Origin: a virus
Reading direction: 5' to 3' (one strand)
Virus record (IMG/VR): IMGVR_UViG_3300027887_000002
Length of the DNA stretch: 53,361 bases
In this document: in pieces, positions 1 through 53,361 of the stretch
How positions within the stretch are numbered: the first letter of the stretch is position 1
Layout: every line of letters begins with the position of its first letter
Position numbers and translations under genes: made by a program
Notes under the pieces: model-generated
What the model saw: only the letters and a program-made list of their open reading frames with translations
Told to the model about the DNA's origin: nothing
Database searches by the model: none

Positions 1-99
1 TCGTAAAATGAAAATCCTGGGCATGACAATTGAGACAAAAGTGACATTGGGACAGGTTGTGTCGGTAGTAATCTTTGTACTGGGTATTACATACCTGGC
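1..99. repeat. terminal overlap copy 1 (identical to 53263-53361)
   Basis: Bases 1-99 (tcgtaaaatgaaaatcctggg...atacctggc) recur exactly at the 3' end of the window. This implies a closed unit of about 53,262 bp. Confidence 0.95.
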
Positions 100-6866: not shown

Positions 6867-7484
6867 ATGAAAATCTCACTCGTGTGCGTTTCAGATTGCC
6901 GGAATATGGCTAATCTGGAGCGCATGGTTGTTTCTGCTCGCCCCATCATCTCTGACGCTGTTCTGGTCGCCCAGACCAAAGACGCGAATACTTTTCGCGA
7001 AGCGTCAAAGCTATTTGATTTCTCCATCCAAACCCTCCCAAAGGGAAACGCTGACCCCGACAGAGACTACGCCTATTCGTTAGCCTCTGGAGATTGGATT
7101 CTCTCTCTCGACGACGACGAATATCTCACCGACGAATGCAAAGACTATATCGGCCGCATCGTTCATTCTAAGGCTGACGTCGTATGGTTCGACTTCAAGA
7201 ATCTGGTCGATAAAGTTGACATCAAGGATATTCTCGGTCCCGACCCACATCCCAGGCTCTGGAGGAAAATCCCCGGATTGATTTCCTGGCCTCCGCAGGC
7301 GCATACATTCCCGCAGATTGCCTCCCCTAAACAGGTGTTTACCCGCACACAGATAGTTCACGACAGGGAGTACAAAGACCTCGAAGAGCGTCATAAGATA
7401 AGGGGTGCGTACATTGATCCCCAGATGCAAGAGGTTGAACAGAGATTTTTGGCGGCGGTTAAACAGAGACTAGGGAAACAATGA
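6867..7484 (+). CDS. glycosyltransferase family 2-like (GT-A)
   Basis: MKISLVCVSDC start and a DxD-type motif in SLDDDEYL. I chose ATG 6867 (downstream of the hairpin) over the ORF-track start at 6816. Confidence 0.6.
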   Translation: MKISLVCVSDCRNMANLERMVVSARPIISDAVLVAQTKDANTFREASKLFDFSIQTLPKGNADPDRDYAYSLASGDWILSLDDDEYLTDECKDYIGRIVHSKADVVWFDFKNLVDKVDIKDILGPDPHPRLWRKIPGLISWPPQAHTFPQIASPKQVFTRTQIVHDREYKDLEERHKIRGAYIDPQMQEVEQRFLAAVKQRLGKQ

Positions 7485-8659: not shown

Positions 8660-9582
8660 AAGTAGTTCTTGACACAACCCACCTAGGTGCAATCGGCGGC
8701 GGCGAGAACTATCTTATGCGGCTCTCACTGGCGCTGAGGGAAGTCTCAGATTTCTATGTAATGGAGAACTTCCACCCGTATTTCCCAGAGTTTAACGGCT
8801 TTGGAGACACATTCGAGGTATACAATGGATTATTCAAACCTGACCTTTACATCCATTCTTCTTACAGTTCTGTCGGGCGTCCTATTGGGCGTAGGAATGC
8901 TTCTGTTGTCTTTTTCCCTAAGAAGAACCTTGTCCCAAACAATTTCGATAGCGTTGTGGCTATCTGCGATTATTCATCTCGTTATATATTGGAATACTGG
9001 GGCAGAGAGGCTTTTGTACTGGAGCCTTGTATCCAGCCTTCTCTTTTTACTCCAGGCAGAAAAGAGGACTTAATCATATCCGTTGGGCATTTTTTCAAAG
9101 AAGCCGATGGCCACAGTAAAAATCAGGACGTACTCATTGAAGCCTTCCAAGACCTCCCGGGATACAAGTTCGAGCTCTACGGGAATGCTCAAACCCTAGA
9201 AGACAAAGTCTACGTACAGTATTGCAAAGAGAAGGCCAGAGGTAAAAATGTCGAGATTCTACTCAACAAACCCCACAAGGATATCAGAAATGCGTTCGCT
9301 CGTGCCAAATATCTTTGGCATGGAAATGGCTACGGTAGATCCGACCCAGCGCAGACCGAGCATTTCGGTATCATCGTTCTGGAGGCGATTGCGAGCGGCT
9401 GTATACCTATTGTCTATAACTCGGGTGGAGCTAGTGAAATTGCTCCATATACTTGGGAAAAGCCCGGAGAGCTCTCAACTGCAGTTAGAACTGGCGGCGA
9501 AGTACCTGGCCTACGAAAACAATTCACTGTCCCCTACTTCAACAAAAAAGTAGCAAAATGGTTAAAAGATGTCTCAATGTAG
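8656..9582 (+). CDS. glycosyltransferase, GT-B fold (family 4 / GT1-type)
   Basis: EHFGIIVLEAIASGCIPIV (E-x7-E region) and a HGNGYG segment. ATGA-coupled. Confidence 0.75.
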   Translation: MKVVLDTTHLGAIGGGENYLMRLSLALREVSDFYVMENFHPYFPEFNGFGDTFEVYNGLFKPDLYIHSSYSSVGRPIGRRNASVVFFPKKNLVPNNFDSVVAICDYSSRYILEYWGREAFVLEPCIQPSLFTPGRKEDLIISVGHFFKEADGHSKNQDVLIEAFQDLPGYKFELYGNAQTLEDKVYVQYCKEKARGKNVEILLNKPHKDIRNAFARAKYLWHGNGYGRSDPAQTEHFGIIVLEAIASGCIPIVYNSGGASEIAPYTWEKPGELSTAVRTGGEVPGLRKQFTVPYFNKKVAKWLKDVSM

Positions 9583-10034
9583 GTTGTGGTAACGACTACC
9601 ACCTATCCGATAAGACCGTAGAGTGGACCAATATCGACATATCCACTACTTGTCACACAGATTTGGTGTGCCATGTCAAAGACATTGACAAGCACTTCGG
9701 AGAAGGATACTTTGATCAATTGGAAGCCGTTCAAGTCTTTGAGCACTTGGAGCGGGACGATTACATACAAACCCTACGCGCCCTCTACTGGGTCTGCGCT
9801 AATGGAGCCACTTGGAACATCGTGGTCCCCCATGGATTCTCAGATAACTTTATCACAGATCCCACCCATAAGCTTCCCTTTTCCCCGCGATCTTTTGACT
9901 TCTTTATTGATGGCAAACAGCTCAGGGAAAATGGAGTGATCTACGGCTGGGAAGACATCAAGCTTGAAGAAGTGAGAACTCCGGAGATTGACGGGAATAG
10001 TTCAATCCATTTTCTTCTTAAAGTGGTAAAATAG
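9558..10034 (+). CDS. class I SAM-dependent methyltransferase
   Basis: CLNVGCGNDY glycine-rich motif I and LEAVQVFEHL (Methyltransf_11-like). Confidence 0.65.
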   Translation: MVKRCLNVGCGNDYHLSDKTVEWTNIDISTTCHTDLVCHVKDIDKHFGEGYFDQLEAVQVFEHLERDDYIQTLRALYWVCANGATWNIVVPHGFSDNFITDPTHKLPFSPRSFDFFIDGKQLRENGVIYGWEDIKLEEVRTPEIDGNSSIHFLLKVVK

Positions 10035-10657
10035 TGGATAAAAAGGGTATTTATGCGATGTTCCCGGATGATTACTGGGAACATTTTTATAAAGAGTTTG
10101 GACATGATTTCGTGGACGCGCATTATGCGAGAACGGCGGTCTACGAGAGTAAGTTTTTCTCTGATCTGCAGGGAAAGAGAGTGATTGAGGCTGGTGGCTA
10201 CCCGGGACTTCTTATAGCGGCGTATATACTAAGTGGGATCGACGTAGTATGCGCCTTCGATCATCCAGACTACAGACCCGCGTATTATCTGTCTTGGATG
10301 AAGGAAATGGGGATACCATCCATAGAACACAACTTCAACTCTGGATATCCCGAAGGACCGATCCCGGAGGCTGACGTCATGGTAATGAGTGACGTCCTTC
10401 TTCATAATGGTGGATTTCCAACGAAGTTCATAGAGTGGGCTCTTAGTCACGTAAAAGAGATCTATCTCATCAACTACGAGGGGAGTGGCCCAGTATTAGA
10501 ATCTCGTGAATTTGATCTAAAAAAGGGCTTTAGGGTCCCAAACTCTACGGCAATCATAGCGCACATGCACACCCTAGGGGCTTCTTGTTCGCGCAGGGAC
10601 TCGTCAGCCGATAGATCTTTGCTCGTATTCAAACCAGGAGAACCATGCGTACCTTAA
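10034..10657 (+). CDS. putative methyltransferase-like Rossmann protein
   Basis: GKRVIEAGGYPGLL glycine loop and DVMVMSDVLLH. The GTG start overlaps the upstream TAG. Assignment is weak. Confidence 0.4.
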   Translation: MDKKGIYAMFPDDYWEHFYKEFGHDFVDAHYARTAVYESKFFSDLQGKRVIEAGGYPGLLIAAYILSGIDVVCAFDHPDYRPAYYLSWMKEMGIPSIEHNFNSGYPEGPIPEADVMVMSDVLLHNGGFPTKFIEWALSHVKEIYLINYEGSGPVLESREFDLKKGFRVPNSTAIIAHMHTLGASCSRRDSSADRSLLVFKPGEPCVP

Positions 10658-11394
10658 TTATTGTCCCACATTACGGCTCAATCGACCATTTGCGAAAACT
10701 TTTCCCATCACTTGGTCTAACCGACAAAGATGTTGACGCTTGCACGGAGAGGGTGTCCATCTTCACCACCTTCTATGGAGCGGTTCTCGTTGTGAACAAC
10801 AACTTGGAGAACTGGGGATTCACCAAAGCCTGTAATATTGGGATGCGGTACGGATTGACGTCTGATTACGACATTCTCTGGCTTCTCAATAATGATACGG
10901 ATGTCCCGGATATACATAAGGCTCTCACTGAACTCGAAAAGGAGTTCGTAGACAACCCTAAAACTGGCGTGGTTGGGTTCAAGATATGTTCCATGGAAGA
11001 CCCGGATTTCATCCATCACGGGGGAACGGGTCAATGTATTCCCACTGGGGTTCACAAGGTTGGATACGTGTCTCAGAAACAGTACGATAAACGTACATTC
11101 GAGCACTGGGTTACGGGGGCTTCTATGGCTATTTCTGCGGGATGTCTTCTGGCTACCGGGGAGATGGACGAGAAGATGGAGAACTACTATTCGGACTCAG
11201 ACTTCTGCTACCGGGCCAGATACTGTGACTACAATGTCGTTTACCTTCCTATCCCAATTCTGCATAAAATAGGTCAATCTGCCAAACCATCCGAAGAGCA
11301 GACCCGGGTGATGCAGAAGGACTTCCTCGTTTTCCAGGCTAAATGGTTGTCTTCTAGGGCCTTTATGGAGTTGTCGGCGGAAGCGTTTGCCTGA
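10645..11394 (+). CDS. glycosyltransferase family 2 (GT-A)
   Basis: LIIVPHYGS start, VVNNN..GFTKACNIG and LLNNDTDV motifs typical of GT2 enzymes. Confidence 0.7.
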   Translation: MRTLIIVPHYGSIDHLRKLFPSLGLTDKDVDACTERVSIFTTFYGAVLVVNNNLENWGFTKACNIGMRYGLTSDYDILWLLNNDTDVPDIHKALTELEKEFVDNPKTGVVGFKICSMEDPDFIHHGGTGQCIPTGVHKVGYVSQKQYDKRTFEHWVTGASMAISAGCLLATGEMDEKMENYYSDSDFCYRARYCDYNVVYLPIPILHKIGQSAKPSEEQTRVMQKDFLVFQAKWLSSRAFMELSAEAFA

Positions 11395-19090: not shown

Positions 19091-19569
19091 ACAGCATAAT
19101 CAATTTCAACAACCCCATCAAGTACATGGTGGTTAGTCCAACCGGAGAGATTATCCAGAGGGGTCAGGTACAGAATGCTGTGGGTGCCAGACTGAAAGAT
19201 CAACTCTCCAGGGCTATGGGATTTTCCTATGGGACTCCTGCCGGGACGGTCCTTCAGATCACCGGGATGGGCTTCAGGACAGACGGGAGCGCGATTCTGG
19301 GTTCTTTCGCACAATGGTTCGCCGGGGCCACCTGCGCGGGAACGGTGTACAATACCGCTACCTACTCGAACTCCATTATGCTTGCCGGAACCTATACGGC
19401 GACAGCCAACGTGTCGGTGAAGAGTGCGATCTTATACTCCTTGGCGGCGAATCTGACGTCTCCATCTTTGGATGTAGGCTCTTTCTGTTACGCTTATTCG
19501 ACCCAATTCAATATGAGTTGCGGTTCCGGCGGTCTTATGATTATCCAATGGACGGTGAACGTATTATGA
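19087..19569 (+). CDS. tail/baseplate protein, unknown function
   Basis: ATGA-coupled. 160 aa. Confidence 0.45.
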   Translation: MNSIINFNNPIKYMVVSPTGEIIQRGQVQNAVGARLKDQLSRAMGFSYGTPAGTVLQITGMGFRTDGSAILGSFAQWFAGATCAGTVYNTATYSNSIMLAGTYTATANVSVKSAILYSLAANLTSPSLDVGSFCYAYSTQFNMSCGSGGLMIIQWTVNVL

Positions 19570-20423
19570 TTGGGACGGCCTTAGCATATACGTTGGCCTA
19601 TAGATTGGCTGGGAGTAGTTACAGGGGTGGATTTAACCAGGGTGGGCAGGGTTCGCAGAACATATACGGTGGAACGTCTATAGCTTGGGTGGGAGCCAAC
19701 GGGTACAGATTCGGTGGGACATTTTTTGAATATGGGGCTGGCTGGCACAGTGGGTTCGGCAGTCATCTTAGACTCATCCGTGCCACCATTGCTTCTGGAA
19801 CTAGTGCTGGGAGTTTCAATAGTTTCGCATTCTGTAGTGGTACCGATGTTCTGGCTTATTCAACATTTTCAAGTGTCTACTCCCCGTCGGCGACGTTAGT
19901 AGTAGATTGGACGTTATTCATGGGAACGATACGTCCTTTCTCTTGGGATGATTGGAGCGCCTTGGCGTCTGAGTTCATTATGATCTCGGCTCTCCGTCCT
20001 CCAAGTGGAGGATGTGGGTTCGCCTCGTTCACCTGTGCCAGTTTGTATGATGCGTTTAACACCACCCGGAACTTCATGGCGACGAAGGTTTCTGAGACCG
20101 TATTACTCAATACTGCAACCACCATATTCAGGGGGACTTGCCCATATAGTGGGTTTAATCTCGGTATGATCCGGTTGTATGCTCGTACCGCCAAAAACGA
20201 CGTTATGGCTATGGAGAATATGGTCTTCGAACATACCCGCTATTGGGAACAAGAACAGTTAAGAGGGACGTACGAATTTGGCAATATGGATATGATTACC
20301 ATAGAGAACGGGGATATTTGGGCTGGGACATATTACTGGCTCGTAGAGGGAGTGGTTGATAATGTCGACTGGAATGCAACAGTTTATCCGTTGGGTACAA
20401 TAGACCCAGCGGATAGACGGTAG
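19566..20423 (+). CDS. tail/baseplate protein, unknown function
   Basis: Internal ATG 19566 (MIGTALAY...) overlaps the upstream stop (ATGA). The longer ORF-track start at 19314 would overlap the previous gene by 256 nt. Confidence 0.45.
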   Translation: MIGTALAYTLAYRLAGSSYRGGFNQGGQGSQNIYGGTSIAWVGANGYRFGGTFFEYGAGWHSGFGSHLRLIRATIASGTSAGSFNSFAFCSGTDVLAYSTFSSVYSPSATLVVDWTLFMGTIRPFSWDDWSALASEFIMISALRPPSGGCGFASFTCASLYDAFNTTRNFMATKVSETVLLNTATTIFRGTCPYSGFNLGMIRLYARTAKNDVMAMENMVFEHTRYWEQEQLRGTYEFGNMDMITIENGDIWAGTYYWLVEGVVDNVDWNATVYPLGTIDPADRR

Positions 20424-20756: not shown

Positions 20757-21530
20757 ATGGCCTTGGTTCTTCCACCTCAGGCATGGCAAGGAGAAACCGG
20801 AATACAGACTGTATGGACGGAGACTGTCGCCGGGCTATACTTCATCGGAGGGACACTGGCTCCGATAGGGACCGAGGGCGTCCTAATAAACTATGGGCGC
20901 ACATTCACCCAGTTTGACAATATCTATCCTGATATTACCTGTTTCAAGGGGACTAGTAACATAGAGTGTAGGGTTGCTTTTGGTCCATCGAGTGCCATGA
21001 TATATCCAGCCAAACAGGACGCCACACTCTATTATCGAATGGAATGGTACACCGGAGTGTACGACACCACCGTTCATGTCGAGAGAGGATACTCTTATGC
21101 TGGGGTAGACGGGCTCATTGTGCGGTTTAATACGCCATATACTCACGCCGCCAGCCTAACTCTCCAGGCTGTAGGACTTAATAATACGGGAAACGCTGTA
21201 GAGTTGGGGATAAACTACGGCTCAACAGCCGCCACATTCTCTCCTGCGGCCGCCTGTATAGTGTACTGGAGAGCTCTTGATACCTCTGGCACTATAGCTG
21301 GAAGCCATGTTGAGAGAGGGGTTATCCCGAATGTTGGGACTGTTGGGGCTTGGGCAACCTTTGCGTCTACTTTCTCTGCTGGACAGGTATATTTCCCAAG
21401 TGCTCGTTGCCAGTTTGGTACGTCAATCGCCGTTGAAGTTCAAGTGGCCAGCTTCACGCTCGCCAGTTTCTATATAAAGCCCTCTAAGGGCGGAGGAACT
21501 GTTACATGGCTCGCAGAACGCATCTACTGA
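20757..21530 (+). CDS. hypothetical tail-module protein
   Basis: 257 aa, beta-rich composition, co-directional. Confidence 0.45.
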   Translation: MALVLPPQAWQGETGIQTVWTETVAGLYFIGGTLAPIGTEGVLINYGRTFTQFDNIYPDITCFKGTSNIECRVAFGPSSAMIYPAKQDATLYYRMEWYTGVYDTTVHVERGYSYAGVDGLIVRFNTPYTHAASLTLQAVGLNNTGNAVELGINYGSTAATFSPAAACIVYWRALDTSGTIAGSHVERGVIPNVGTVGAWATFASTFSAGQVYFPSARCQFGTSIAVEVQVASFTLASFYIKPSKGGGTVTWLAERIY

Positions 21531-22156
21531 TAAGTCTTCTCCTTCTGGCTGGCACACTTCTAGCTCAGGATAGGGATGTACAAAATATCTACATCCATCA
21601 GAGACAGTTTATGGATTCCATAGCTATCCCAGCAATCCCTCCGGTTTCCGGTTCGGTTTCTGTGTTTAGCCGTGGGAAACTGGGACTCTTTATGATGTTT
21701 CCGGACGCTTCCGTGAAGAGGGTTGACTCTGTGGGGAGTGCCGCTTATGGAGATTCTGCCAGAATTGCCTATGAAGCCATGAGTATAAAGAACTATACCG
21801 TAGTGACTATGTGGCCTATGTTCGGAGGAGAGGCAGACTCAGCCTACATCACTACCAGCATCAAACTGGGAGGTGGAATTCAGCCTAGAAATGTGGTTAT
21901 AGACTCGATTAAGTACAGCGCCTTTGGTGGAAGTTGTAATGTTACCCCAAGTGTCAGGTATGGATATGACAGGTCGGCGTCTGGAACATCGGTGATTACC
22001 AGTCCTTCGGCCGTCACAAGTGTAACTACGCCCACGACTATATCGTCTTTTAATAATGCGACTGTTCCAGCAAATAACAATGTCTGGCTTGTTTTTACTG
22101 ACACAACGACTAAGCCGTGGCATTTGATGTGGACTGTGTACGGACACTACCAGTGA
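21506..22156 (+). CDS. signal-peptide-bearing protein; C-terminal domain paralogous to 24623-25066
   Basis: N-terminus MARRTHLLISLLLLAGTLLAQD. The C-terminal GIQPRNVVIDSIKY...NNNVWLVF...WTVYGHYQ aligns with GVQPTGVVIDSVHF...GNDVWITW...IIWGHLI. Confidence 0.55.
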   Translation: MARRTHLLISLLLLAGTLLAQDRDVQNIYIHQRQFMDSIAIPAIPPVSGSVSVFSRGKLGLFMMFPDASVKRVDSVGSAAYGDSARIAYEAMSIKNYTVVTMWPMFGGEADSAYITTSIKLGGGIQPRNVVIDSIKYSAFGGSCNVTPSVRYGYDRSASGTSVITSPSAVTSVTTPTTISSFNNATVPANNNVWLVFTDTTTKPWHLMWTVYGHYQ

Positions 22157-22881
22157 TACGAAAACTTTTCGTTCTATTACTTATCTGTGTTGGCGCCCAG
22201 GCCCAAGTGATGTACCCTTATGTGACCAAGAAGGCCAGCGCTGGTGGAGGTGGAGGTTCTCCTACCCCGTTCTATCTGGCTAACGCCACCATGGGAACAA
22301 CCGTGTCGGGTGGTACCAGTATGCAGATTACAGTATCTCTACCTTCTGGCTGTAACTATCTAAGGGTGGAGATGGGTGAGGCCAACGAATACTCTCGTTG
22401 TGACTCTGCGTATATCTGTAGCACGACCCCTGACGTTATTGGTGCAAGGATCGGCCTTAAAGACGCTGGGGGGACTAATCTAAACCAAGAGTCTTGGGGC
22501 ATACAGCGCTCGGATACTTCTGCCGCCTCTGTGGTTGTCCGCATACACATGACAGCCTCGATCGACTTCGCCGCAGGGGTAGTCCCGGTGGTGAAAGCAA
22601 ACTCTAGTGCGCCAGCAGGAACCTACAATGGGCAATCAAGTGCCGGGACCACTTCTCCGTCTTTCACTGTGGAGGCCGTTTCCGGAGATACGATTGTAGT
22701 CTCCACCCTTGAAGGGAACGTGACTGGAGGCTCTGTTACAAACATAGGCTCGGTATCAGACCTCAGTGGGTACCGTAGTTTCACAATTCTGAAAAAGGCT
22801 TACGTGGCGAACCCGACAACTGTTTCGTATGCCACATCCAATAGCCCCCTTAATGCCGGGGGAGCGGCGGTGAAACCATGA
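22153..22881 (+). CDS. signal-peptide-bearing protein, unknown function
   Basis: GTG 22153 overlaps the upstream TGA. Leader is (V/M)IRKLFVLLLICVGAQAQ. The leader codons carry palindrome 22159-22171. Confidence 0.5.
   Translation: MIRKLFVLLLICVGAQAQVMYPYVTKKASAGGGGGSPTPFYLANATMGTTVSGGTSMQITVSLPSGCNYLRVEMGEANEYSRCDSAYICSTTPDVIGARIGLKDAGGTNLNQESWGIQRSDTSAASVVVRIHMTASIDFAAGVVPVVKANSSAPAGTYNGQSSAGTTSPSFTVEAVSGDTIVVSTLEGNVTGGSVTNIGSVSDLSGYRSFTILKKAYVANPTTVSYATSNSPLNAGGAAVKP
22159..22171. repeat. CGAAAA-C-TTTTCG palindrome copy
   Basis: cgaaaacttttcg at codons 3-7 of gene 22153, read as RKLF. Confidence 0.85.
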
Positions 22882-24620
22882 TACGAAAACTCTTTGCGCT
22901 ATTCATACTCAGTACAAGTCTCAGTTTTGCTACTGACTATTATGTAAAGACCAACGGAAACGATGCGCTCTCCGGCACAAGTGTGGGGAACGCTTGGGCT
23001 ACCATCTCAAAAGCCAATAACACTCTTGTGGCTGGCGACAGAGTGCTCGTCTTAGGTGGAGAATATAGTGGTCAGATCAATCCGGTCAACAGTGGCTCCG
23101 CCGGAAACTATATCACTTATATAGCTTATGACGCCGCTTGGCGTCCTATTCTCCGTCCCGCTTCGGGCCCCTCGGCAAATCTTTCAGAGGACAGCTATAT
23201 CCGCGTAGAGGGCTTTGGGATGCCTAGGGGATTTGATATTTACAAGGGCAGTCACAACATCTTCCGTAACGACTCCTGTGCCTTCGACACGCAGGGTAAA
23301 ACGATATCGTATGGGGTAGGAGATTTAAACAATACCGCGTTTAATACCATTCGAAGGTGCTTTTTCAACGCGAATGATGGTATGTACGCAGAGTACGGGA
23401 GCCATGCTGGTGTCGCTATGTCCTCTGATGATATTGGCGGTGGGTGTTACGACAACCTCGTCGATAGCTGTATGAGTATCCAGAGTTCCGACATTGGGTA
23501 TTCTACATTCGGATGGCAGGGATTCAACCGTAATGTGTTCCGTGCCGATACCGCCATGTGGTGCCATACGGGATTTATGACTGAAGACGGTGTTAGCGCA
23601 CACAATTTTCTTATTGACCGTTGTGTTATTATCCAGTGTGGCATCAACTCAGCAGATAGACCAGCGTTTCCGGGATATCAGCTTAACGGGCACTCCTACG
23701 AGCTTCTCGGACAGGATCACCTTATCGTCCGATATAATGTCGCGATAAATGACACGAACCTCACGGGCAGTTACATTCCATCCCATATGTACTGGGATGA
23801 AATGGGTATTTCTCCAGATCTTGAGGGTGGGGTCGTCTGGGCGGACGCCACAAATTACTACGTTTACAACAATACGATATGGGGGCGGTGTGGGAACTCT
23901 CAAGAGCATTACATTGTACGTGTGGAAATTCCCGAGGCTGGTCAGGTCACTCAGAACATAAATGTCAAGAATAATATCTTTGCTCGGGAGACCAACTCGC
24001 CCACTATGGTCTACGAAGCCAACAGATACGGGTACGTAAACCAAACCGTAGACTTCGACAACCACTTCACAAACAACATATTCTATCGTACGTCCGGGAC
24101 TGGATCGGATGTTGGTGCGTACGAGGACGCTGGTGGGTATGTTGGGTCGTTCACAATTTCGGAATTGGAGTCATCGTATCCAGCTCGTTGGAGTAGTAAC
24201 ACCCTTGAGAATCCGGTTTTTGCGGACACTACTTCACGGGGTAGATGGATAAACTTGGGGTTACAGGCAAGTTCTCCCGCTATAGATGCTTCTGATCCAT
24301 TGACATATGCCAATGGAGGAGGTTCTGGAACGTCTCTTACTGTAGACGATGCCGGATATTTCTGGGGAGGGAACGAGTTGGTCCCTGCCGACTCCATAAT
24401 GATTGGTTCTGTGAAGCGGCAGATTAGTTCCATTAGTGGCAACGTGATAACCCTGACACAAACCGCCACATGGTCGGACAATACCCCAATATACTACTAT
24501 TCTTGGGATAAGTGGATCGGGAATTACCCAGATATCGGGGCTTTGGAATACGGAACACCCGCACCTCCAGCAGAGGGAGCCGAGCCAAGTATTCCAGGGA
24601 AAATGGTCATTGTGAGGTAA
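22878..24620 (+). CDS. right-handed parallel beta-helix (pectate-lyase fold) protein with signal-peptide-like leader; candidate polysaccharide depolymerase
   Basis: Leader MIRKLFALFILSTSLSFA. It is followed by TDYYVKTNGNDALSGTSVGNAWATISKA, a cap motif common in beta-helix proteins. Asn-ladder-like rungs recur (NIFRND, NTIRRC, NLVDSC, NVFRAD, NNTIWG, NNIFAR, NNIFYR). Confidence 0.65.
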   Translation: MIRKLFALFILSTSLSFATDYYVKTNGNDALSGTSVGNAWATISKANNTLVAGDRVLVLGGEYSGQINPVNSGSAGNYITYIAYDAAWRPILRPASGPSANLSEDSYIRVEGFGMPRGFDIYKGSHNIFRNDSCAFDTQGKTISYGVGDLNNTAFNTIRRCFFNANDGMYAEYGSHAGVAMSSDDIGGGCYDNLVDSCMSIQSSDIGYSTFGWQGFNRNVFRADTAMWCHTGFMTEDGVSAHNFLIDRCVIIQCGINSADRPAFPGYQLNGHSYELLGQDHLIVRYNVAINDTNLTGSYIPSHMYWDEMGISPDLEGGVVWADATNYYVYNNTIWGRCGNSQEHYIVRVEIPEAGQVTQNINVKNNIFARETNSPTMVYEANRYGYVNQTVDFDNHFTNNIFYRTSGTGSDVGAYEDAGGYVGSFTISELESSYPARWSSNTLENPVFADTTSRGRWINLGLQASSPAIDASDPLTYANGGGSGTSLTVDDAGYFWGGNELVPADSIMIGSVKRQISSISGNVITLTQTATWSDNTPIYYYSWDKWIGNYPDIGALEYGTPAPPAEGAEPSIPGKMVIVR

Positions 24621-24622
24621 CT

Positions 24623-25066
24623 ATGTTGCGAAAACTTTTCGTATTGTTGTTTATTCCCGTTCTGGCGATTGGGCAGACCAAGCTTAGTCATTCTACGGCT
24701 GGTCTAGATTCTGCGGCCTTTGGTTCAAAAGCATATTTCGCCTGTGGAGCAGATTCCGCTAACACCACTACTTGGGACAAGTTTCCCATGGGGGTTCAGC
24801 CGACTGGGGTGGTAATTGATAGCGTACATTTCATTTGTCTATATTCTACCACTCCAAACTTTACGCCCACCATTAGCTATGGGACGGACGTCAATGCTAC
24901 GGGAACAAGTCTGGGATCGTTCTCCTCCGTAGCGAGTTCACATGTCACTTCGGCGGTTGGGAAAGGAACAACCATTCCTGCGGGAAATGACGTCTGGATA
25001 ACCTGGGGAAGTATAACGACCCTGCCTCGGAGGTGGGCGGTGATTATCTGGGGACACCTGATATGA
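24623..25066 (+). CDS. signal-peptide-bearing small protein, paralog of the 21506-22156 C-terminal domain
   Basis: GAGG RBS 6 nt upstream of ATG 24623. Leader MLRKLFVLLFIPVLAIGQ carries palindrome 24629-24641. Confidence 0.55.
   Translation: MLRKLFVLLFIPVLAIGQTKLSHSTAGLDSAAFGSKAYFACGADSANTTTWDKFPMGVQPTGVVIDSVHFICLYSTTPNFTPTISYGTDVNATGTSLGSFSSVASSHVTSAVGKGTTIPAGNDVWITWGSITTLPRRWAVIIWGHLI
24629..24641. repeat. CGAAAA-C-TTTTCG palindrome copy
   Basis: cgaaaacttttcg at codons 3-7 of gene 24623, read as RKLF. Confidence 0.85.
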
Positions 25067-26340
25067 GACTACTTTTTTTGATGTTGTTATCTACGTCGGT
25101 TTATGCACAGTCGATATTTTACGGGTCATACCGAATCTCATCAGACCCAAATATTGTGCTTGTCGGCAGAGATAGTGCCAATATATTGTACGTAAACGAT
25201 AAGACCCTCACTACGTCTTTGAGTGGTTCAGACGGGAATAGGTATAGTCTGTTTTTTGTGGGAACCTATACGTCAGGGGCAAATTTTGTAGATTCTGTTA
25301 CTGTAGATAGCGTTGCTGGTGGTTCTATGAAAAAGGCTACACTTGTGGGTCGTACACAATATCCAGCGGGTGGGTTACAGGTTAATATTTACGGCATGAA
25401 GAACCTAAATAACGGGAGTCATACAGTGCACGCTTATGCGCCATCTCAAATGTACGGCGGGATGCTTGCGGCGGTTCATTTAGGCAATGTAGACCAAACA
25501 TTACCAATAGCAGAATATGCAGGGAACTATAATTATAGTGTTGTCCCCACTGTCATTGCTTCAAATCGACATAAACAGTGGCTCTTTGATTGCACGGTTA
25601 ACTCTGGTGGTCAGGGGAACATGGGGACGGCTGGACAAACTCTTGCCGCAAGTATTAGTAACAACGCAGACGGGGAGAACTGTGCGGTTGGGTGGGATTC
25701 AACCGTAGGATATATTTCCACTTGGGCATCCCTGGGTACGGCGAGTTGGGTTCTTGGGGCCGTCACCGTCAACCAGTATATGTCTGGAGATTCTTATGAT
25801 ACAGTATTAACAGAGGTGGACACTCAGTTAAGAGATGCGTATTGCGTTCTAAATTATACCTCAGCCACCGACAATGGTTATTTGCGCTGTGGTTCATATT
25901 TAAGTCAAGCGCGCGAGTGGGGTGCCGAGATGCCTCTGGCAATTCCTAAAGATGCCGATATTATCAATGCTGTTCTTATTTGTACAGTAAATGACAATAG
26001 CGGCTGGGGTGTTACGGATACAATGTCGGTAAGAGCTTTTGCTGTTGATAATGCCTCTGCTTTTGTTCACGGAGCATCAGAGTGGATACATGAACATCAT
26101 ACCCGAGGTACAGACTCAACATACTGGATAAGTCCAGACGGTTGGGCTGGAGATAGGGTTGAGCGCTCTTTTGATGCAAGTGCTCTTGTGCAAGCCGTCG
26201 TAAATCGTTCTGGATGGAGTTCTGGAAACTATATTGGATTTTGTGGAGTAGCGAAGACGTACGTAGACCCAAATTACATGGGGTTCAAGGACTATACTTC
26301 GGGATCGGGTAGGATGAAACTGCGAGTTGTTTACCACTAA
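25063..26340 (+). CDS. signal-peptide-bearing protein, unknown function (425 aa)
   Basis: ATG 25063 overlaps the upstream TGA (ATGA). Leader MRLLFLMLLSTSVYAQS. Confidence 0.5.
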   Translation: MRLLFLMLLSTSVYAQSIFYGSYRISSDPNIVLVGRDSANILYVNDKTLTTSLSGSDGNRYSLFFVGTYTSGANFVDSVTVDSVAGGSMKKATLVGRTQYPAGGLQVNIYGMKNLNNGSHTVHAYAPSQMYGGMLAAVHLGNVDQTLPIAEYAGNYNYSVVPTVIASNRHKQWLFDCTVNSGGQGNMGTAGQTLAASISNNADGENCAVGWDSTVGYISTWASLGTASWVLGAVTVNQYMSGDSYDTVLTEVDTQLRDAYCVLNYTSATDNGYLRCGSYLSQAREWGAEMPLAIPKDADIINAVLICTVNDNSGWGVTDTMSVRAFAVDNASAFVHGASEWIHEHHTRGTDSTYWISPDGWAGDRVERSFDASALVQAVVNRSGWSSGNYIGFCGVAKTYVDPNYMGFKDYTSGSGRMKLRVVYH

Positions 26341-26358
26341 ACATTAAGGAGAAATATC

Positions 26359-26766
26359 ATGGCTATTAAGATGTCAGTCACCGTTCGCAATGCTCGCCTG
26401 GACGCCATCGAAACGGCGATTGGCACCGGGGCAGTTTTGAAGATCCGCACTGGGGCGCCCCCGACAAATATCGCAGACGCCGATTCCGGTACCGTACTGG
26501 CGACGCTTACTCTGGATTCAAACTGGATGGCTGATGCCGCAAGTGGAAGCAAGGCTCTCGCTGGGACATGGCAGGATACGTCTGCAGACGCCGCAGGGAC
26601 AGCCGGACACTTCCGTATCTACGCTTCCAATGGTACCACACAACACATACAGGGTACGGTTGGTGGTACGTCAAGTGGTGAAGATATGGAGTTGGATAAC
26701 ACTAGTATTGCGGCTGGTCAGACAGTAACTATCACAAGCTTCACGCTCACGGACGGGAACGCATAG
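26359..26766 (+). CDS. small conserved-looking phage protein, unknown function
   Basis: AAGGAG RBS. 135 aa, Ala/Gly/Thr-rich. Confidence 0.5.
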   Translation: MAIKMSVTVRNARLDAIETAIGTGAVLKIRTGAPPTNIADADSGTVLATLTLDSNWMADAASGSKALAGTWQDTSADAAGTAGHFRIYASNGTTQHIQGTVGGTSSGEDMELDNTSIAAGQTVTITSFTLTDGNA

Positions 26767-26769
26767 TAA

Positions 26770-28650
26770 ATGGCTTTTAACGTACGCCAAAAGTCTTTCC
26801 GTGGCAGGATAGACAACCAGGTCTTGAATGCCGCATCGTGGGATTACGGGTTGAACACGGTGTGGACATGGACTACTGGTACGTTCTATCGTGTCCGCTT
26901 TTCGCTTCAGGAATACGGGACGACTGCTGGCACCACTACGTGGAGTCTGATGTACCGGAGGAACTCGGGCACGTTTGCTACCGTGTCCAGTTCCTCTCCG
27001 TGGATTCGACTTGCGACAAGTTCACAGTTCGCCAACTTGACGGCCGCCACTGTCAAGTTGTTGGACGGTATAGGAACTTGGCGTAACGGAGCTGGATTAA
27101 CCACTTCTCAGTACACGGCCACTCACCAGATGGCCTCGCTCGGCCACACGGAATTTGAGTTTGGCCTGAAGGCGATTGGCTCGTGGGTGGGTGGCGATAC
27201 CATGAACCTGAGGGTCTACCAGTCCGGTACCAGGGTTGCTCTAACTGGCTACCTTGGTACTGGCACCTGGACGATGGCCCAACCCTGTAACGGAACGACC
27301 AGTGAGACGCTTGGCGATATTACTAGGTCTTCTGCGGGTAAGGTCTACGTGGCGGGAACTTTTAGCCAGACTCTTTCTGCTATAACCCGGTCTATTTCTG
27401 GGACAATAACAAATCCGCCAAGTGGAGCTCTTGTACAATACAGAGCACTTCTTGATGCTTACGGGTCAGTTGTCCTAGATAGTAACAGTGCTACAGTCTA
27501 TACCAGAGAGTGGAATTATCAACTTTCTGATGTAGGAAGGACTTTGACTGGGAAGGTTACGACACACGGAACCTTCAATAAAACTCTTGCCAATATAACA
27601 CGTTCTATTGCTGGGAATATTCAGAACCCAGCCATTCATGGAATCCTGAGTAAGAATCTGGATGCGATTACAAGATCCAGTGCTGGTAAAGTCATAGCGA
27701 AGGGTTCCACCAGTAAGACTTTAGCTACCGTTACCAGAAGTTCTTCCGGTAAAGTTATCGTAAAGGGCTCTACCAGCAAAACACTAGATAGTGTTACGAG
27801 AAATTCTGCTGGAAAGGTTACGGTAAAGGGGTCCACTTCCAAGACGTTATCTACTATTACCAAGACTATCACTGGTAAGGTGGCAGTCAAGGGGAGCCTT
27901 GGAAAGACTCTTGGTGCAATTGCACCTTCTATTTCCGGGATAGTTTTTACTCCGATTCCCGGTATTACTGGTTCTTTAGCTAAGACGCTTTCCGGAATCA
28001 CCTCGGCATCTTCTGGAAAGATTATTGTTAGTGGGACGTTTTCTAAGAGTCTTTCCACGGTTACCAAGACTCTTTCTGGCAGGGTGACTGTAAATGGCTC
28101 CTTCGCCAAGAGTTTGGCGGGTATAGGCAGGTCATCGTCTGGAACCGTAAAAAATGCCATACACGGAACGACAGCAAAAACTCTTGCCAACATTACTCGT
28201 TCCAGTGCTGGTAAAGTTTATGTCAAGGGAAACTCTGCAAAGAGTTTGGCTTCTCTAGGCAGAACGATTTCAGGAAAACTCCCCATAAAGGGGACTGGTC
28301 TAAAGACTTTCTCTTCCCTGACAGGAACAGGCACGGGAAGGGTGTATGTTAAGGGTGGCGCACAAAAGGGCTTGGATGGGATAACCCTATATGGTAGGGC
28401 GCATGTCCCCATGCTGGGTATTAATGGATCTCTCGGTAAGCAACTTGGAGGCGTCGTACTTTACAGTGTTGGTTCACCGATAACTGGCGGCGGAACTCCA
28501 GATAACACTCTTGTCGAAGGCGGGAGATCCAGTATATCCAGAGATATTAGCCCAAATATCCATGGGAACGACAGAGAGATTGTTTTTGGTAATCCTACAT
28601 CTATCGTAAAAGGGAGGGCTCATGCCCCGGTTCGCCGTTCAGAGGGTTAG
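26770..28650 (+). CDS. tail fibre-like protein with about 16 tandem 21-aa repeats
   Basis: 626 aa. From aa 181 the unit ITRS(S/I)(A/S)GKVxVKGxxSKTLxx repeats. Four near-identical core units span aa 300-381. Confidence 0.6.
   Translation: MAFNVRQKSFRGRIDNQVLNAASWDYGLNTVWTWTTGTFYRVRFSLQEYGTTAGTTTWSLMYRRNSGTFATVSSSSPWIRLATSSQFANLTAATVKLLDGIGTWRNGAGLTTSQYTATHQMASLGHTEFEFGLKAIGSWVGGDTMNLRVYQSGTRVALTGYLGTGTWTMAQPCNGTTSETLGDITRSSAGKVYVAGTFSQTLSAITRSISGTITNPPSGALVQYRALLDAYGSVVLDSNSATVYTREWNYQLSDVGRTLTGKVTTHGTFNKTLANITRSIAGNIQNPAIHGILSKNLDAITRSSAGKVIAKGSTSKTLATVTRSSSGKVIVKGSTSKTLDSVTRNSAGKVTVKGSTSKTLSTITKTITGKVAVKGSLGKTLGAIAPSISGIVFTPIPGITGSLAKTLSGITSASSGKIIVSGTFSKSLSTVTKTLSGRVTVNGSFAKSLAGIGRSSSGTVKNAIHGTTAKTLANITRSSAGKVYVKGNSAKSLASLGRTISGKLPIKGTGLKTFSSLTGTGTGRVYVKGGAQKGLDGITLYGRAHVPMLGINGSLGKQLGGVVLYSVGSPITGGGTPDNTLVEGGRSSISRDISPNIHGNDREIVFGNPTSIVKGRAHAPVRRSEG
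27310..28464 (+). repeat. in-frame tandem coding repeats, period about 63 nt
   Basis: Repeats are read from the translation. The core is 27664-27915 and flanking copies are degenerate. Confidence 0.8.
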
Positions 28651-28906
28651 CGAAAGAATTGAACAGGGATTTGACTTCTCTGCTCTGTTTCCTACGGGTG
28701 AGAATGTTACCTACTCGGTGACAATTCTGCCCGTAACCAACCCTACATTTCAGAGTTTCTCAAACGGTACTTCGGGAAGGCTTTTGACACATCTTCTGGG
28801 TGGGGGCGTGGCCGACGAGAAGTATCATGTAACAGCATGGGGTACGGGTGCTACAACGGGGGGAAGAAAGAGTATCGACATATTCATTTCCGTAAGACCC
28901 GATTAG
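28622..28906 (+). CDS. small beta-rich protein next to the fibre gene
   Basis: 94 aa. Overlaps the fibre gene 3' end by 29 nt. Pattern GFDFSALFPTGENVTYSVT. Confidence 0.4.
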   Translation: MPRFAVQRVSERIEQGFDFSALFPTGENVTYSVTILPVTNPTFQSFSNGTSGRLLTHLLGGGVADEKYHVTAWGTGATTGGRKSIDIFISVRPD

Positions 28907-28913
28907 GAGACCT

Positions 28914-29627
28914 ATGAAACGAATTCTTGCATTACTTCTGTTGCTACCGTGCATACTTTTCGCACAGCCAAAGCGCTATGCAAAACTTGCACTGTACGAG
29001 GAATACTACACCCCGCAGAAGGCCGCCATTGTCTGGGAAAACTCTTGGGAAACCTCAATGCCAGACACGGTGTACAATATGTACATCGGGAACGTGATTT
29101 GGTTTAAAGACACGACTTGCTACAATCCCGAAATATCTTTTCGCTTAGATTCTCTTAGGGGGAGAGGAGATAAACGAGAGGCGCGTATTACGGCAGTACG
29201 GAAATCTCCAGTCAAAGCCGATTGGATCTGGCTCTATACGCCAAGTATTTACGAAATGAAGATGAATCCTCAAAAGTATCCCGTTACCGTTACTCCTACC
29301 GGGGGTTATCTTCGTAAGTGGCAAGACACCCTGATGGCCGTGACTCCAGATTCAACATATCGTGAAAGCCAATGGTTCTCGTACACGCGAAAAGACTATT
29401 GGAACCAGATTGTGGGGGCTGACGGACAGGGGATGGCGACTTGGATGTTCCAGTCATTCATTCCCAAGGATACCACACAAAATAGGCGGACACTGAAATG
29501 CTGGATGGAAAAAGTCATCGGAGATCCCACCGTAAACAACGGATGGAATCAACTCATTCGATTCCGCATGGTTTACTATGCAGAACAGCCAAAGCAATTT
29601 TACGATGCATCAAACAATGCATTCTAA
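28914..29627 (+). CDS. signal-peptide-bearing protein, unknown function
   Basis: AGGAG RBS. Leader MKRILALLLLLPCILFAQPK. 237 aa, Trp/Tyr-rich. Confidence 0.55.
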   Translation: MKRILALLLLLPCILFAQPKRYAKLALYEEYYTPQKAAIVWENSWETSMPDTVYNMYIGNVIWFKDTTCYNPEISFRLDSLRGRGDKREARITAVRKSPVKADWIWLYTPSIYEMKMNPQKYPVTVTPTGGYLRKWQDTLMAVTPDSTYRESQWFSYTRKDYWNQIVGADGQGMATWMFQSFIPKDTTQNRRTLKCWMEKVIGDPTVNNGWNQLIRFRMVYYAEQPKQFYDASNNAF

Positions 29628-29658
29628 ATCGGTTCCTATATTATGAAGTAAGGCCATG

Positions 29659-29671
29659 CGAAAACTTTTCG
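29659..29671. repeat. CGAAAA-C-TTTTCG palindrome copy (intergenic)
   Basis: cgaaaacttttcg directly after an orphan ATG (29656). The 15-codon mini-ORF reads MRKLFGSISYTHKGY*. Confidence 0.85.
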
Positions 29672-29704
29672 GTAGTATTTCATACACACATAAAGGATAC
29701 TAAT

Positions 29705-30005: not shown

Positions 30006-32051
30006 ATGAGCGGAGAGTCAAAGAACTTTAATCCAGATGTTCTTTTCCTCTACCGTACTACTAGGAAAACGGTTGGGAGCGTCATAGTCCCGGCTTTCGA
30101 TCTGGGTAAAACTGATTGGAACCGAAGACTTACCGATGCTCCCACTGTTTCTAAAGAGTCGGTTGATTGGACTGGGAAACCTACGTCCGGCGAGATAGTT
30201 TTCACTATCGCAGATACGGATGGAAGTGTAACCCTGACCGTAGGGCAGAGATTGGGTGATCCCGTAGCTATGTTCTTTAAAGCTAGCGAGAATCCCCTTA
30301 CTTGGTGGCCTGTCTTTGAGGGTAATATCACGAAGACGATGCGCTCCCAGGGTCTCTACACTATTACTGTTACTGATGCCGTGAAAAACATCTATAACAG
30401 TCAGTTCATTTCCGACTACGTTAATCTTGGCACTACCATAGGAAATAATATCTATGGTACTGTGAAAGATGTTATTGGGACCAACGTCTATCTTGATGAC
30501 ATGGGGGACGTCCAGTGGATCAGGAGAAGGATACCTGGAGACGATTCTTGGTGGGCTAGTATTACCGGGGCGGCTCTCGGTGCTTTAGCTGGCGCAGTTT
30601 CCGGTGGATTTGCACTTCTTCCCGCGCTCATTGGGGCTGGAGGGGGGTTCTTACAGGGAATCCCAAAGGGTGGAGCTTATGATCGGTTCTCCGTACGGGT
30701 CAATGACCAGAATATAATCTCTGACGACGAGGTTCTTGGCGGTCAGATGCTTAAGTTCTACGCTGGAAGTATCAGTGGATGGGCGCAGAACACGGAAAGC
30801 CCACTATTTCCTCTCGTCGCCCAGCATACCCGTGGTGGAACATTCATGCTTGGACTCCATGGAACGATCTACATGGAGGATATGCTCCACGGCGTACAGA
30901 AGGGCGATTACATCTACAGTGAGCTTCCTCTCTATTTCAGGGGAAGTCCTGACGATGTTATCGTCAATATGCTCACCGGAAAGAATACTACCGTAAAATA
31001 TACCTTCCCGGACGATTTTAGCTGGGACTGGAGTTACCAGACGGCTCCCTTAAGACACATTGATTGCTGGGGACTAGTGAGTAACTTCGAGTCTGGCGCC
31101 GTAGCCGACATCATCAATAAACTCTCGGAAGAGTTTGGGTTCTCGTTCTATGTTGACGAAAGCAATAGATTTGCCATTAGGACTCTCAGGTCAAAGAGCA
31201 TAGGTACCGACGTCCTAGGTACGTTTACAGAAGACTACAATATCATCGGAGATACTGAGTACGAGTACGACCTGCAGACCAGTTATACCGATCTCGTGAT
31301 AAACTACAGAGACACCTTCATTGGGGATATGTATGGCATGAAGGTGCAGGCCACCTTAAATAGTGCTTCTTTCTATGGTGGTGTAAGGCGCGTCAAGGAG
31401 ATCAATTCGGAATGGATTCACGATAAGCTTACTGGTGAGTACATGATTGAGAGGTACAAGAGGCGGTTCGCGACTCCTGTGCCCGTACTGAAGTTTACGG
31501 CTCCACTCTACTCGGCGCCTATTCATATAGGGGAAATCATTAGGGTCTCCGGATATGCCTGCGGCTCAATGGTTCCCTACGAAATCAGCAAGTATCAGAA
31601 AGACTTTGCCCGTTCTTCGGTTGACATTGAAGCAGAATGTGTCGGATCTTACTACGGCGCCTACAAATACGGATATCTTGACGGGTCTTGCTATTGTTCC
31701 ACCTTTGCTCCGATGGACTATCCGGGGCAATATGGAGCAATCCCATACGCCATAGACGATATCCAGACTTCTATCACTGTTTCCGGACCCGTCTATATTC
31801 AGGCCCTATCTGTTGGGATGAGTTTTACGTTCAACACCGCGACAAAGTGCGAGATGATACAGATACTTGCCGTAGAGGGTCAGAAGTATTCCACGGATCT
31901 TGCTGGTCAGGCTTGGTTCACCTACAAGGTCAAACGTGGCGCACTTAATTCGCAACCCCAGGCTTATCCTGCTGGAGCGGCTGTTCGTCAGTGCGTCTAC
32001 GGAAGACACAAGACAAATAACGACGATTCGATTCCCTATATCTGGTACTAA
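30006..32051 (+). CDS. large distal-tail / baseplate protein
   Basis: 681 aa. Contains a Gly-rich hydrophobic insert (AALGALAGAVSGGFALLPALIGAGGGFLQG). Assignment is positional. Confidence 0.5.
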   Translation: MSGESKNFNPDVLFLYRTTRKTVGSVIVPAFDLGKTDWNRRLTDAPTVSKESVDWTGKPTSGEIVFTIADTDGSVTLTVGQRLGDPVAMFFKASENPLTWWPVFEGNITKTMRSQGLYTITVTDAVKNIYNSQFISDYVNLGTTIGNNIYGTVKDVIGTNVYLDDMGDVQWIRRRIPGDDSWWASITGAALGALAGAVSGGFALLPALIGAGGGFLQGIPKGGAYDRFSVRVNDQNIISDDEVLGGQMLKFYAGSISGWAQNTESPLFPLVAQHTRGGTFMLGLHGTIYMEDMLHGVQKGDYIYSELPLYFRGSPDDVIVNMLTGKNTTVKYTFPDDFSWDWSYQTAPLRHIDCWGLVSNFESGAVADIINKLSEEFGFSFYVDESNRFAIRTLRSKSIGTDVLGTFTEDYNIIGDTEYEYDLQTSYTDLVINYRDTFIGDMYGMKVQATLNSASFYGGVRRVKEINSEWIHDKLTGEYMIERYKRRFATPVPVLKFTAPLYSAPIHIGEIIRVSGYACGSMVPYEISKYQKDFARSSVDIEAECVGSYYGAYKYGYLDGSCYCSTFAPMDYPGQYGAIPYAIDDIQTSITVSGPVYIQALSVGMSFTFNTATKCEMIQILAVEGQKYSTDLAGQAWFTYKVKRGALNSQPQAYPAGAAVRQCVYGRHKTNNDDSIPYIWY

Positions 32052-53273: not shown

Positions 53274-53361
53274 AAATCCTGGGCATGACAATTGAGACAA
53301 AAGTGACATTGGGACAGGTTGTGTCGGTAGTAATCTTTGTACTGGGTATTACATACCTGGC
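53263..53361. repeat. terminal overlap copy 2 (identical to 1-99)
   Basis: Direct comparison with the window start. Confidence 0.95.

Follow-up and report, generated by a model that had tools for sequence, protein, structure and literature searches.

Six tail-operon proteins of a siphovirus start with predicted signal peptides, five of Q-rule type, and may be exported before they join the virion

Introduction

All parts of a tailed virion are, in the textbook view, folded and assembled in the cytoplasm. The virus record IMGVR_UViG_3300027887_000002 (53,361 nucleotides; "the window" denotes this whole stretch of DNA) raises the question of why six proteins encoded in its tail-fibre region start with leaders that resemble Sec-type signal peptides, and where such proteins would act. 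The six, here designated A to F in gene order, had been listed in a preliminary description of the DNA, which offered three explanations: secreted accessory factors, among them a depolymerase; a hydrophobic N-terminus that serves in docking or membrane-assisted assembly; or captured host cassettes. We recovered the six open reading frames (ORFs) and their N-termini exactly as listed, and the premise, that the leaders are of Sec type and unexpected in a fibre region, was borne out. Overlooked in that description were the glutamine that follows the leaders (the Q-rule), the enrichment of O-glycosylation sequons in the mature proteins, and the size of the family to which A and D belong. With these signatures it is highly probable that the six are true substrates of Sec and signal peptidase I (SPI) and are exported; they may then join the virion at lysis.

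Results

Six leaders with signal peptidase I anatomy

By heuristic criteria all six leaders exhibit the anatomy of type I Sec/SPI signal peptides, with K or R among the first 2-5 residues, an uncharged h-region that, at 11-14 residues, is shorter than a membrane anchor requires, and a predicted cut with A or G at -1 and A, S, V or L at -3 (Table 1). In a home-made heuristic scan of every candidate start, in six frames and over the whole genome, the six leaders scored 4.4-5.9, and the remaining matches of at least 4.4 were all antisense ORFs or starts inside a gene, for instance at the transmembrane segment of the tape measure. Among the approximately 70 real gene starts of the genome only these six resemble signal peptides, and all of them lie within 8.1 kb (21.5-29.6 kb). 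A canonical lipobox is absent from all six, and lipoproteins were rejected on that ground. A cysteine excess was also tried as a mark of export and was discarded, the values (1.26% vs 1.06%) not being distinctive.

Table 1. The six leader-bearing proteins and neighbouring features. A slash marks the predicted cut; sequons are D-(S/T)-(A/I/L/V/M/T), observed (expected).
Feature	Position	Strand	Product	N-terminus	Signal peptide, cut	Sequons
A	21506..22156	+	216 aa	MARRTHLLISLLLLAGTLLA/QD	1-20, LLA/Q	6 (0.9)
B	22153..22881	+	242 aa, GTG start	(M)IRKLFVLLLICVGAQA/QV	1-17, AQA/Q	2 (0.7)
C	22878..24620	+	580 aa	MIRKLFALFILSTSLSFA/TD	1-18, SFA/T	3 (2.0)
D	24623..25066	+	147 aa	MLRKLFVLLFIPVLAIG/QT	1-17, AIG/Q	3 (0.7)
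E	25063..26340	+	425 aa	MRLLFLMLLSTSVYA/QS	1-15, VYA/Q	7 (1.8)
F	28914..29627	+	237 aa	MKRILALLLLLPCILFA/QP	1-17, LFA/Q	6 (0.5)
Three interleaved leaderless genes	26359..28906	+	classical virion fibre parts by look
phrog_3758 gene	26359-26766	+	135 aa, virion structural protein, 64% identical to Pseudanabaena phage Pan4 protein
Repeat protein gene	within 26359..28906	+	626 aa		no signal peptide
PF23148-like gene	28622-28906	+	94 aa, weak match (E = 2e-5, below cut-off) to podophage GP4 fibre-tail adaptor gp77
Orphan stub	29656..29703	+	15 codons, opens with RKLF-coding palindrome CGAAAACTTTTCG, as in B and D	MRKLFGSISYTHKGY-stop

Glutamine at the predicted new N-terminus

Gln occupies position +1 in five of the six proteins (A, B, D, E and F), C having Thr. 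Glutamine makes up only about 3-4% of residues, so that five out of six at this position is far beyond chance. In Bacteroidetes a mean of 71% of SPI substrates carry Gln at +1, where it is cyclised to pyroglutamate, and in Ignavibacterium 77% do, with far lower values in most other phyla (Bochtler et al. 2018, PMC5837995). Five Q-rule genes of unknown function have been noted in Porphyromonas gingivalis phages, for which use of the host secretion system was inferred (Matrishin et al. 2023, PMC10367356), and this is the only published mention of Q-rule phage genes found in our literature search. The leaders in the window are alike in anatomy to both sets. The P. gingivalis phage genes are unassigned prophage cargo, whereas those in the window are of fibre-knob or depolymerase type and are coupled within a tail operon; the sequon excess and the knob family described below appear in neither of the two papers.

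An excess of O-glycosylation sequons

Bacteroidota O-glycosylate exported proteins at D-(S/T)-(A/I/L/V/M/T) (PMC8550257). Taken together, the mature six contain 27 such sequons (1.55 per 100 aa) against 6.5 +/- 2.4 expected from shuffles, and 27 was reached in none of 1000 shuffles. The other 31 plus-strand late proteins contain 28 (0.31 per 100 aa) against 26.2 expected. The excess is individually significant for A, D, E and F, and as predicted exported proteins with sequons the six jointly resemble Bacteroidota O-glycosylation substrates. Five control motifs, in which D was replaced by E or by N, the motif was reversed, D[ST] was followed by a non-permitted residue, or D[ST] gave way to D[AG], were not enriched; a sixth, G[ST][AILVMT], occurred 13 times in the six proteins (12.3 expected) and was enriched in the other late proteins (71 vs 45.8).

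The same division was seen on four unrelated phage contigs (L007, L009, L010 and L011), where proteins with signal peptide plus knob contain 65 sequons against 18.5 expected, and those without signal peptide 41 against 50.7. Counts for the beta-helix family of C (270 vs 228 expected), for crAss001 gp22-26 (16 vs 13) and for the fibres of B40-8 (16 vs 11) indicate that the excess is no general property of fibres or beta-helices.

In the knob family of A and D, the first sequon lies at most 30 residues from the cut in 65 of 108 signal-peptide-bearing members (shuffle mean 15.9). It is often found inside a recurrent motif, phi-D-S-phi-phi-x-phi-P, approximately 20 residues past the predicted cut, with examples in MFDSALYVP, RVDSLLLFP and RIDSVLSIP (knob family P0116-P0265) and in FMDSIAIP of A (residues 35-42). 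The motif could be an N-proximal glycosylation site or a docking element.

The phage also has a glycosyltransferase (GT) cassette at 6867-11394, with a GT9 heptosyltransferase-like gene (7481-8659) and a GT4 gene (8656-9582). The cassette could build a glycan for the sequon-rich exported six. It could supply a lipid-linked donor for the periplasmic O-glycosylation of the host, or act by cytoplasmic heptosylation before Sec, in the style of autotransporter heptosyltransferases.

A and D carry a fibre-tip knob of a large phage family

A and D are paralogous (32% identity over 158 aa). In A the leader is followed by an N-terminal part of about 70 residues and a C-terminal jelly-roll knob (approximately 94-215), in D by a short linker and the knob (36-147). 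An AlphaFold2 (AF2) model of D, made with a 40-sequence alignment, is an 8-stranded jelly-roll with a predicted local distance difference test score (pLDDT) of 87.7. The knob model gave 93 matches in BFVD at E <= 1e-3, the best being C-terminal parts of fibre proteins from uncultured phages; among the 50 listed, the named ones are collagen-repeat, Mtd-N-domain, tail-fibre and minor-tail proteins, and many are unnamed. In PDB it weakly matches the tail fibres of phage 7-7-1 and a trimeric cement protein. As modelled, the knob is a phage fibre-tip jelly-roll domain, and A and D probably bind a glycan or receptor.

A knob profile search of 1.84 billion representatives returned 1,429 proteins (301 at E <= 1e-10), of 106-1701 aa, always with the knob at the extreme C-terminus. 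Among the top 148, 106 have a signal peptide followed by a small residue and Q, approximately 7 more have starts miscalled inside the leader, and approximately 25 have classical leaderless fibre N-termini; small-residue-Q follows 106 of the 108 signal-peptide-like N-termini. Conservation within the knob is highest at a D-(S/T), present in 139 of 150 members. Family members match tail-fibre, tail-spike and minor-tail PHROGs as well as GDSL-esterase, beta-helix and BNR-sialidase Pfam families, while A and D themselves had no NCBIfam match of any kind.

Every knob context fetched was a phage, with the gene at a fibre position, and sipho-, myo-, podo- and crAss-like phages are all represented. In the SU10-like podophage L007 the signal-peptide-bearing knob protein directly follows the adaptor; in the myo-like L009 it adjoins a gp9/10-like baseplate protein and is followed by three Q-rule proteins and lysis genes; in the siphophage L010 it comes after Phage_tail_2 with another signal-peptide protein next; and in the crAss-like L011 it is accompanied by four more signal-peptide proteins. 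Four IMG/VR loci (L014-L017) exhibit the same pattern of neighbouring signal-peptide proteins, the knob of L015 being leaderless and that of L017 only a fragment. A search of 185,579 species genomes with one subfamily profile (two short patterns) gave no knob, and two representative knob sequences of the family, along with P0177, had no match among cultured phages (tblastn).

With its N-terminal signal peptide and conserved extreme C-terminal domain, the A/D family shares the format of type IX secretion system (T9SS) cargo. The T9SS C-terminal domain is Ig-like, whereas the knob is an 8-strand, fibre-tip-like jelly-roll, and the family, unlike T9SS cargo, includes leaderless proteins with classical fibre N-termini. 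No T9SS C-terminal domain was among the 50 PDB matches listed for the knob model, and none of the six proteins matches PF18962, PF13585 or the TIGR C-terminal-domain families. For these reasons (fold, leaderless members and lack of a C-terminal-domain family match) the idea that the knob is a new T9SS sorting domain was rejected.

C is a predicted polysaccharide-degrading beta-helix protein

In C the leader is followed at once by a right-handed beta-helix and then by a conserved small C-terminal domain. The beta-helix had been proposed earlier for 22878-24620 and was upheld by homologues and by a family profile. C alone stays below Pfam thresholds; its homologues carry PF22842, PF13229 and PF07602, and the family profile matches 3vst (2e-22), the polysaccharide lyase family 9 (PL9) rhamnogalacturonan lyase 5olq (9e-15) and Pel9A 1ru4 (3.5e-8) in PDB, as well as 7dmk and 1ofl, with PL6 lyases and chondroitinase B among the matches. 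These profiles assign C to a Pel9A-like, PL6/PL9-type polysaccharide lyase/hydrolase fold, from which enzyme activity is predicted.

C has 114 relatives. The nearest two (51% and 47% identity), which likewise begin with signal peptides, are found on phage-like fragments, where they adjoin an A/D-like gene. One of them is L001 (JGI contig Ga0453684_0102305, 3-3503), in which a gene of the A/D knob family stands directly upstream of the closest homologue (51%), so that the pairing of knob and helix recurs; further on are two small holin-like membrane proteins and another Q-rule signal-peptide protein, MRALLLILLFLASDVYA/Q. In P0118 a C-like helix with the same cap and C-terminal motifs is fused to a knob 63% identical to that of D; as a Rosetta-stone fusion it suggests a joint action of C and D. 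More distant relatives that align over the full length (28-30% identity) are T9SS cargo proteins of cells, found in ordinary chromosomal contexts and built of a signal peptide, Pel9A-like beta-helix, FN3 and T9SS C-terminal domain; the last of these is missing in C. The helix cap (TDYYVKTNGND…) is the start of mature C and aligns to residue ~+1 of the secreted cellular homologues.

The beta-helical, polysaccharide-acting fold and the location among tail genes are shared with tailspike depolymerases such as P22 gp9 and crAss001 gp22-gp26. Classical tailspikes lack a signal peptide (checked for crAss001 gp22-26) and have an N-terminal particle-binding domain, whereas C has a leader and, straight after it, the helix cap. 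One relative of the cap occurs in an SU10-like podophage and has no signal peptide, nor has any other gene on that contig. C itself had no match in cultured phages (tblastn).

Signal-peptide-bearing proteins annotated as structural in Cellulophaga phages

In the Cellulophaga phage phi10:1 (KC821618), a siphophage with a Bacteroidota host, gp091-gp094 are annotated as structural proteins by experimental tandem mass spectrometry (MS/MS) proteomics, and all four have Q-rule signal peptides, ending in SLSA/Q, LSFG/Q, GVSA/Q and GLNA/Q. The adjacent gp095, a pectate lyase, also has a Q-rule signal peptide and is not flagged as MS-detected. Relatives of gp093 are found in 33 Cellulophaga phage records under the names 'structural protein' or 'pectate lyase', and we found no comment in the literature on the signal peptides of these proteins. 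The virion MS/MS work on phi10:1 is said to be that of Holmfeldt et al. 2013.

The window resembles phi10:1 in layout and leader: consecutive genes with Q-rule signal peptides at the distal end of the tail module, including a pectate-lyase-like beta-helix protein that has its counterpart in C. Proteomic evidence places the phi10:1 proteins in particles, whereas the six in the window are known from their genes alone; phi10:1 in turn has no A/D knob.

The six genes are part of the late tail operon

A and B are joined by a GTGA overlap, B and C as well as D and E by ATGA overlaps, and C and D are separated by 2 nt. No convincing intergenic terminator or promoter was found, site counts being near those of shuffled sequence, and the GC content at third codon positions (GC3) of the six genes is like that of the rest of the genome. 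They are ordinary late tail-operon genes, translationally coupled, and not morons: the overlaps and the lack of convincing signals of their own exclude autonomous units. Lysogeny-expressed morons were rejected for the same reasons, and because no integrase was seen in the genome. Neither the lipobox nor a convincing autonomous promoter-terminator unit, as expected of a superinfection-exclusion moron, was found.

Nothing usable was obtained for the six proteins from Pfam, PHROGs and NCBIfam. B, E and F are orphans: B has no match in these three databases and no IMG/VR relative, E has no relative among 5.8 billion proteins or in IMG/VR, and F none among 5.8 billion proteins. A single-sequence AF2 model of E reached a pLDDT of 31.5.

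Neighbouring genes and a dispersed palindrome

Three leaderless genes are interleaved between E and F (Table 1). The phrog_3758 gene among them is unusually widespread, and is also found in Caulobacter, Microcystis, Vibrio and Mycobacterium phages, downstream of central fibre genes. The PF23148-like gene stands directly upstream of F. Elsewhere in the tail region, a 285-aa protein (19566-20423) weakly resembles patatin-like phospholipases (E = 6.5e-4, below cut-off).

The stub downstream of F is probably a relic of a leader-bearing cassette. Its opening palindrome, the 13-nt CGAAAA(C/G)TTTTCG, has 30 strand-hits in the genome at no more than 2 mismatches, against 1.7 expected; it is exact at 22159, 24629, 29659, 20486, 36723, 42287 and 46219, and has one mismatch at 47932, 52924, 6985, 10693 and 15137. 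It encodes the RKLF of the leaders of B and D and of the stub, and also lies within other genes and in intergenic DNA. RKLF as a leader-specific cassette signal was rejected, since the palindrome is dispersed genome-wide; the palindrome could serve as an operator or as a site of recombination.

Genome and host

An identical 99-bp direct repeat occupies both ends of the window (1-99 and 53263-53361), which is therefore a complete, circularly closed phage genome of approximately 53.26 kb. It encodes the terminase large subunit (TerL), portal, major capsid protein and a 1103-aa tape measure; a replication arm on the minus strand includes genes for a DnaB-like helicase and an Erf-like protein. The phage is a siphovirus, apparently lytic. 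It has no close cultured relative, TerL being less than 25% identical to any phage record; no close relative of TerL was found in IMG/VR or in representative genomes, nor of the 681-aa tail protein in IMG/VR.

Both the Q-rule and the excess of sequons suggest a host in the Bacteroidota or an allied Q-rule lineage. Shine-Dalgarno-like motifs precede 15 of 37 late genes, which is more than expected for a classical Bacteroidota host, and given this count the host may be another Q-rule lineage of the Fibrobacteres-Chlorobi-Bacteroidetes (FCB) group. The T9SS C-terminal domains in cellular relatives of C are of NYPNPFNPST type. An Ignavibacteria-like host presumably fits these domains and the Shine-Dalgarno count at least as well as classical Bacteroidia do.

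Discussion

We propose that the six proteins form a toolkit directed at the host envelope, with C as the enzyme, A and D as knobs, and B, E and F of unknown fold. Each would pass unfolded through SecYEG and lose its leader after the A or G at -1, whereupon the exposed N-terminal Gln of five of them would be converted to pyroglutamate by the glutaminyl cyclase of the host. In at least A, D, E and F, the general periplasmic glycosylation system of the host would then attach O-glycans at D-(S/T)-(A/I/L/V/M/T) sites. D would probably work with C, since fused relatives exist. When the holin breaches the inner membrane, the periplasmic proteins would meet the particle built in the cytoplasm and become distal tail appendages.

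This last step is the one of which we are least sure, and we favour it slightly, as a close call, over a life as free factors. Attachment to the virion is suggested by the coupling to structural genes, the fibre-tip knob, the motif that follows the cut and the proteomics of signal-peptide-bearing tail-end proteins in Cellulophaga virions. The fibre-tip knob, the fibre positions of its relatives and the MS/MS annotation in phi10:1 also strengthen the relation to the virion that the docking explanation had implied. On several contigs, moreover, signal-peptide-bearing knob proteins are the only visible candidates for receptor-binding proteins at the fibre locus. As a general proposal, that in a large, mostly uncultured set of phages of Bacteroidota-type hosts the fibres, knobs and depolymerases fold outside the cytoplasm, being Sec-exported, trimmed by SPI, capped with pyroglutamate, O-glycosylated with a glycan that the GT9/GT4 cassette of the phage may re-programme, and joined to the particle only when the holin opens the inner membrane, the scheme is more tentative, and we hold it for a possibility rather than an expectation.

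Several observations weigh against the proposal. Tailed virions are assembled in the cytoplasm, and we know of no mechanism for adding periplasmic proteins to them. The signal peptides were called by our own heuristic together with the Q-rule and sequon signatures. Taken singly, B and C have no significant excess of sequons, and leaderless members of the knob family exhibit an equal excess (216 vs 63), so that the signal could be partly structural and not related to glycosylation. No particle-binding domain of the P22 gp9 type precedes the beta-helix of C, and D is little more than a bare knob. The phi10:1 proteins have no homology to the six (BLASTP, knob hidden Markov model) and no sequon excess, and their detection by MS could reflect co-purifying material; in the cultured Bacteroides phages crAss001 and B40-8, the fibres lack signal peptides. 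Finally, the window has leaderless fibre candidates of its own at 26359-28906 and 30006-32051, for which reason the six may be dispensable for adsorption.

A rival explanation is that the six are exported and never enter the virion, acting as free periplasmic or released late accessory factors; we regard this as a serious contender, although rather less probable than not. With the help of the two knob proteins, C would break down or mask capsule, exopolysaccharide or O-glycan from within, thereby freeing progeny and preventing re-adsorption to debris, in a receptor-destroying or receptor-masking role, or aiding lysis, with B, E and F as further envelope modifiers. The whole of the evidence for export applies here as well. 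C has the layout of a cellular secreted enzyme minus the FN3 and T9SS C-terminal domains, with no virion anchor, and to this extent the secreted accessory factors of the preliminary description, with their depolymerase, are still viable. The bare knob of D, the separate fibre genes without signal peptides that the phage has kept, the signal-peptide clusters directly upstream of lysis genes in other contigs, and the lack of an MS flag for the signal-peptide pectate lyase gp095 all fit such factors.

There is also precedent for exported proteins encoded beside receptor-binding genes, as T5 Llp, lambda Lom and Bor, and Cor of phi80 and N15 serve in receptor masking and the protection of progeny. 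The layout in the window is alike, but in each of those cases one small protein is involved, a lipoprotein or an outer-membrane protein, often under expression signals of its own, whereas the window has six SPI substrates, including proteins of 425 and 580 aa, with fibre and enzyme folds and with neither lipobox nor autonomous promoter or terminator. Free factors are harder to reconcile with the stoichiometric coupling of the six genes to structural genes, which sets them apart from autonomous morons, with the contigs in which knob proteins with signal peptides are the only receptor-binding candidates in sight, with the detection of all four signal-peptide proteins gp091-094 in phi10:1 virions, and with a conserved motif past the cut (65 of 108 family members) that resembles a docking element. 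Lacking a T9SS C-terminal domain or lipobox, such proteins would also remain in the periplasm until lysis.

That the six are not exported at all is improbable. The leaders would then stay uncleaved as structural elements, serving as helices for trimerisation or baseplate docking or as a transient inner-membrane tether facing the cytoplasm, and their likeness to signal peptides would be incidental. Their place among tail genes, the existence of fibre-family members without signal peptide, and the RKLF and DNA-level similarity shared by three leaders, as in a conserved module, would suit this explanation; the RKLF likeness, however, stems from the dispersed palindrome, and the AF2 model of D gives the leader no confident structure. 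The short h-regions, AxA-like sites and 5/6 Q at +1 are the exact SPI signature of the host, which recurs family-wide in 106 of 108 signal-peptide-like N-termini, and within the genome the sequon excess is confined to the six. Compliance with the Q-rule is not expected of a docking helix, nor is a four-fold excess of periplasmic O-glycosylation sequons after it, and the uncleaved docking or membrane-assembly element considered earlier is therefore disfavoured.

Least probable of all are recently captured host cassettes, i.e. cellular genes for secreted proteins taken up with their leaders as cargo in a hypervariable slot and with no adapted phage role: the cellular T9SS relatives of C (28-30% identical over the whole length), the orphan B, E and F, and the leader stub at 29656, which suggests cassette turnover, speak for capture, for C alone among the six as far as relatives go, but the GC3 and composition match the genome and the coupling is tight, so that capture does not look recent, the A/D family was seen in phage contexts and not in the species genomes searched with one subfamily profile, and the closest relatives of C lie on phage-like fragments beside an A/D-like gene.

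If fibre and depolymerase-type proteins do pass through the periplasm, virion assembly would gain a last step that crosses compartments, amounting to a two-compartment assembly route for tailed phages. Receptor-binding proteins may then carry O-glycans of host type and pyroglutamate caps, with effects on stability, antigenicity and host range, and recombinant receptor-binding proteins or depolymerases made in the cytoplasm of E. coli may be inactive. If the six are free factors instead, they would represent a new and abundant group of phage effectors, secreted late and directed at the host envelope. The Q-rule and the sequon excess would allow phages to be assigned to Bacteroidota-type hosts from sequence, and would also flag their exported proteins. 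The knob family of 1,429 representatives offers a handle for a systematic survey, and the Cellulophaga phages are a cultured system able to settle whether such proteins belong to the virion or act as free factors.

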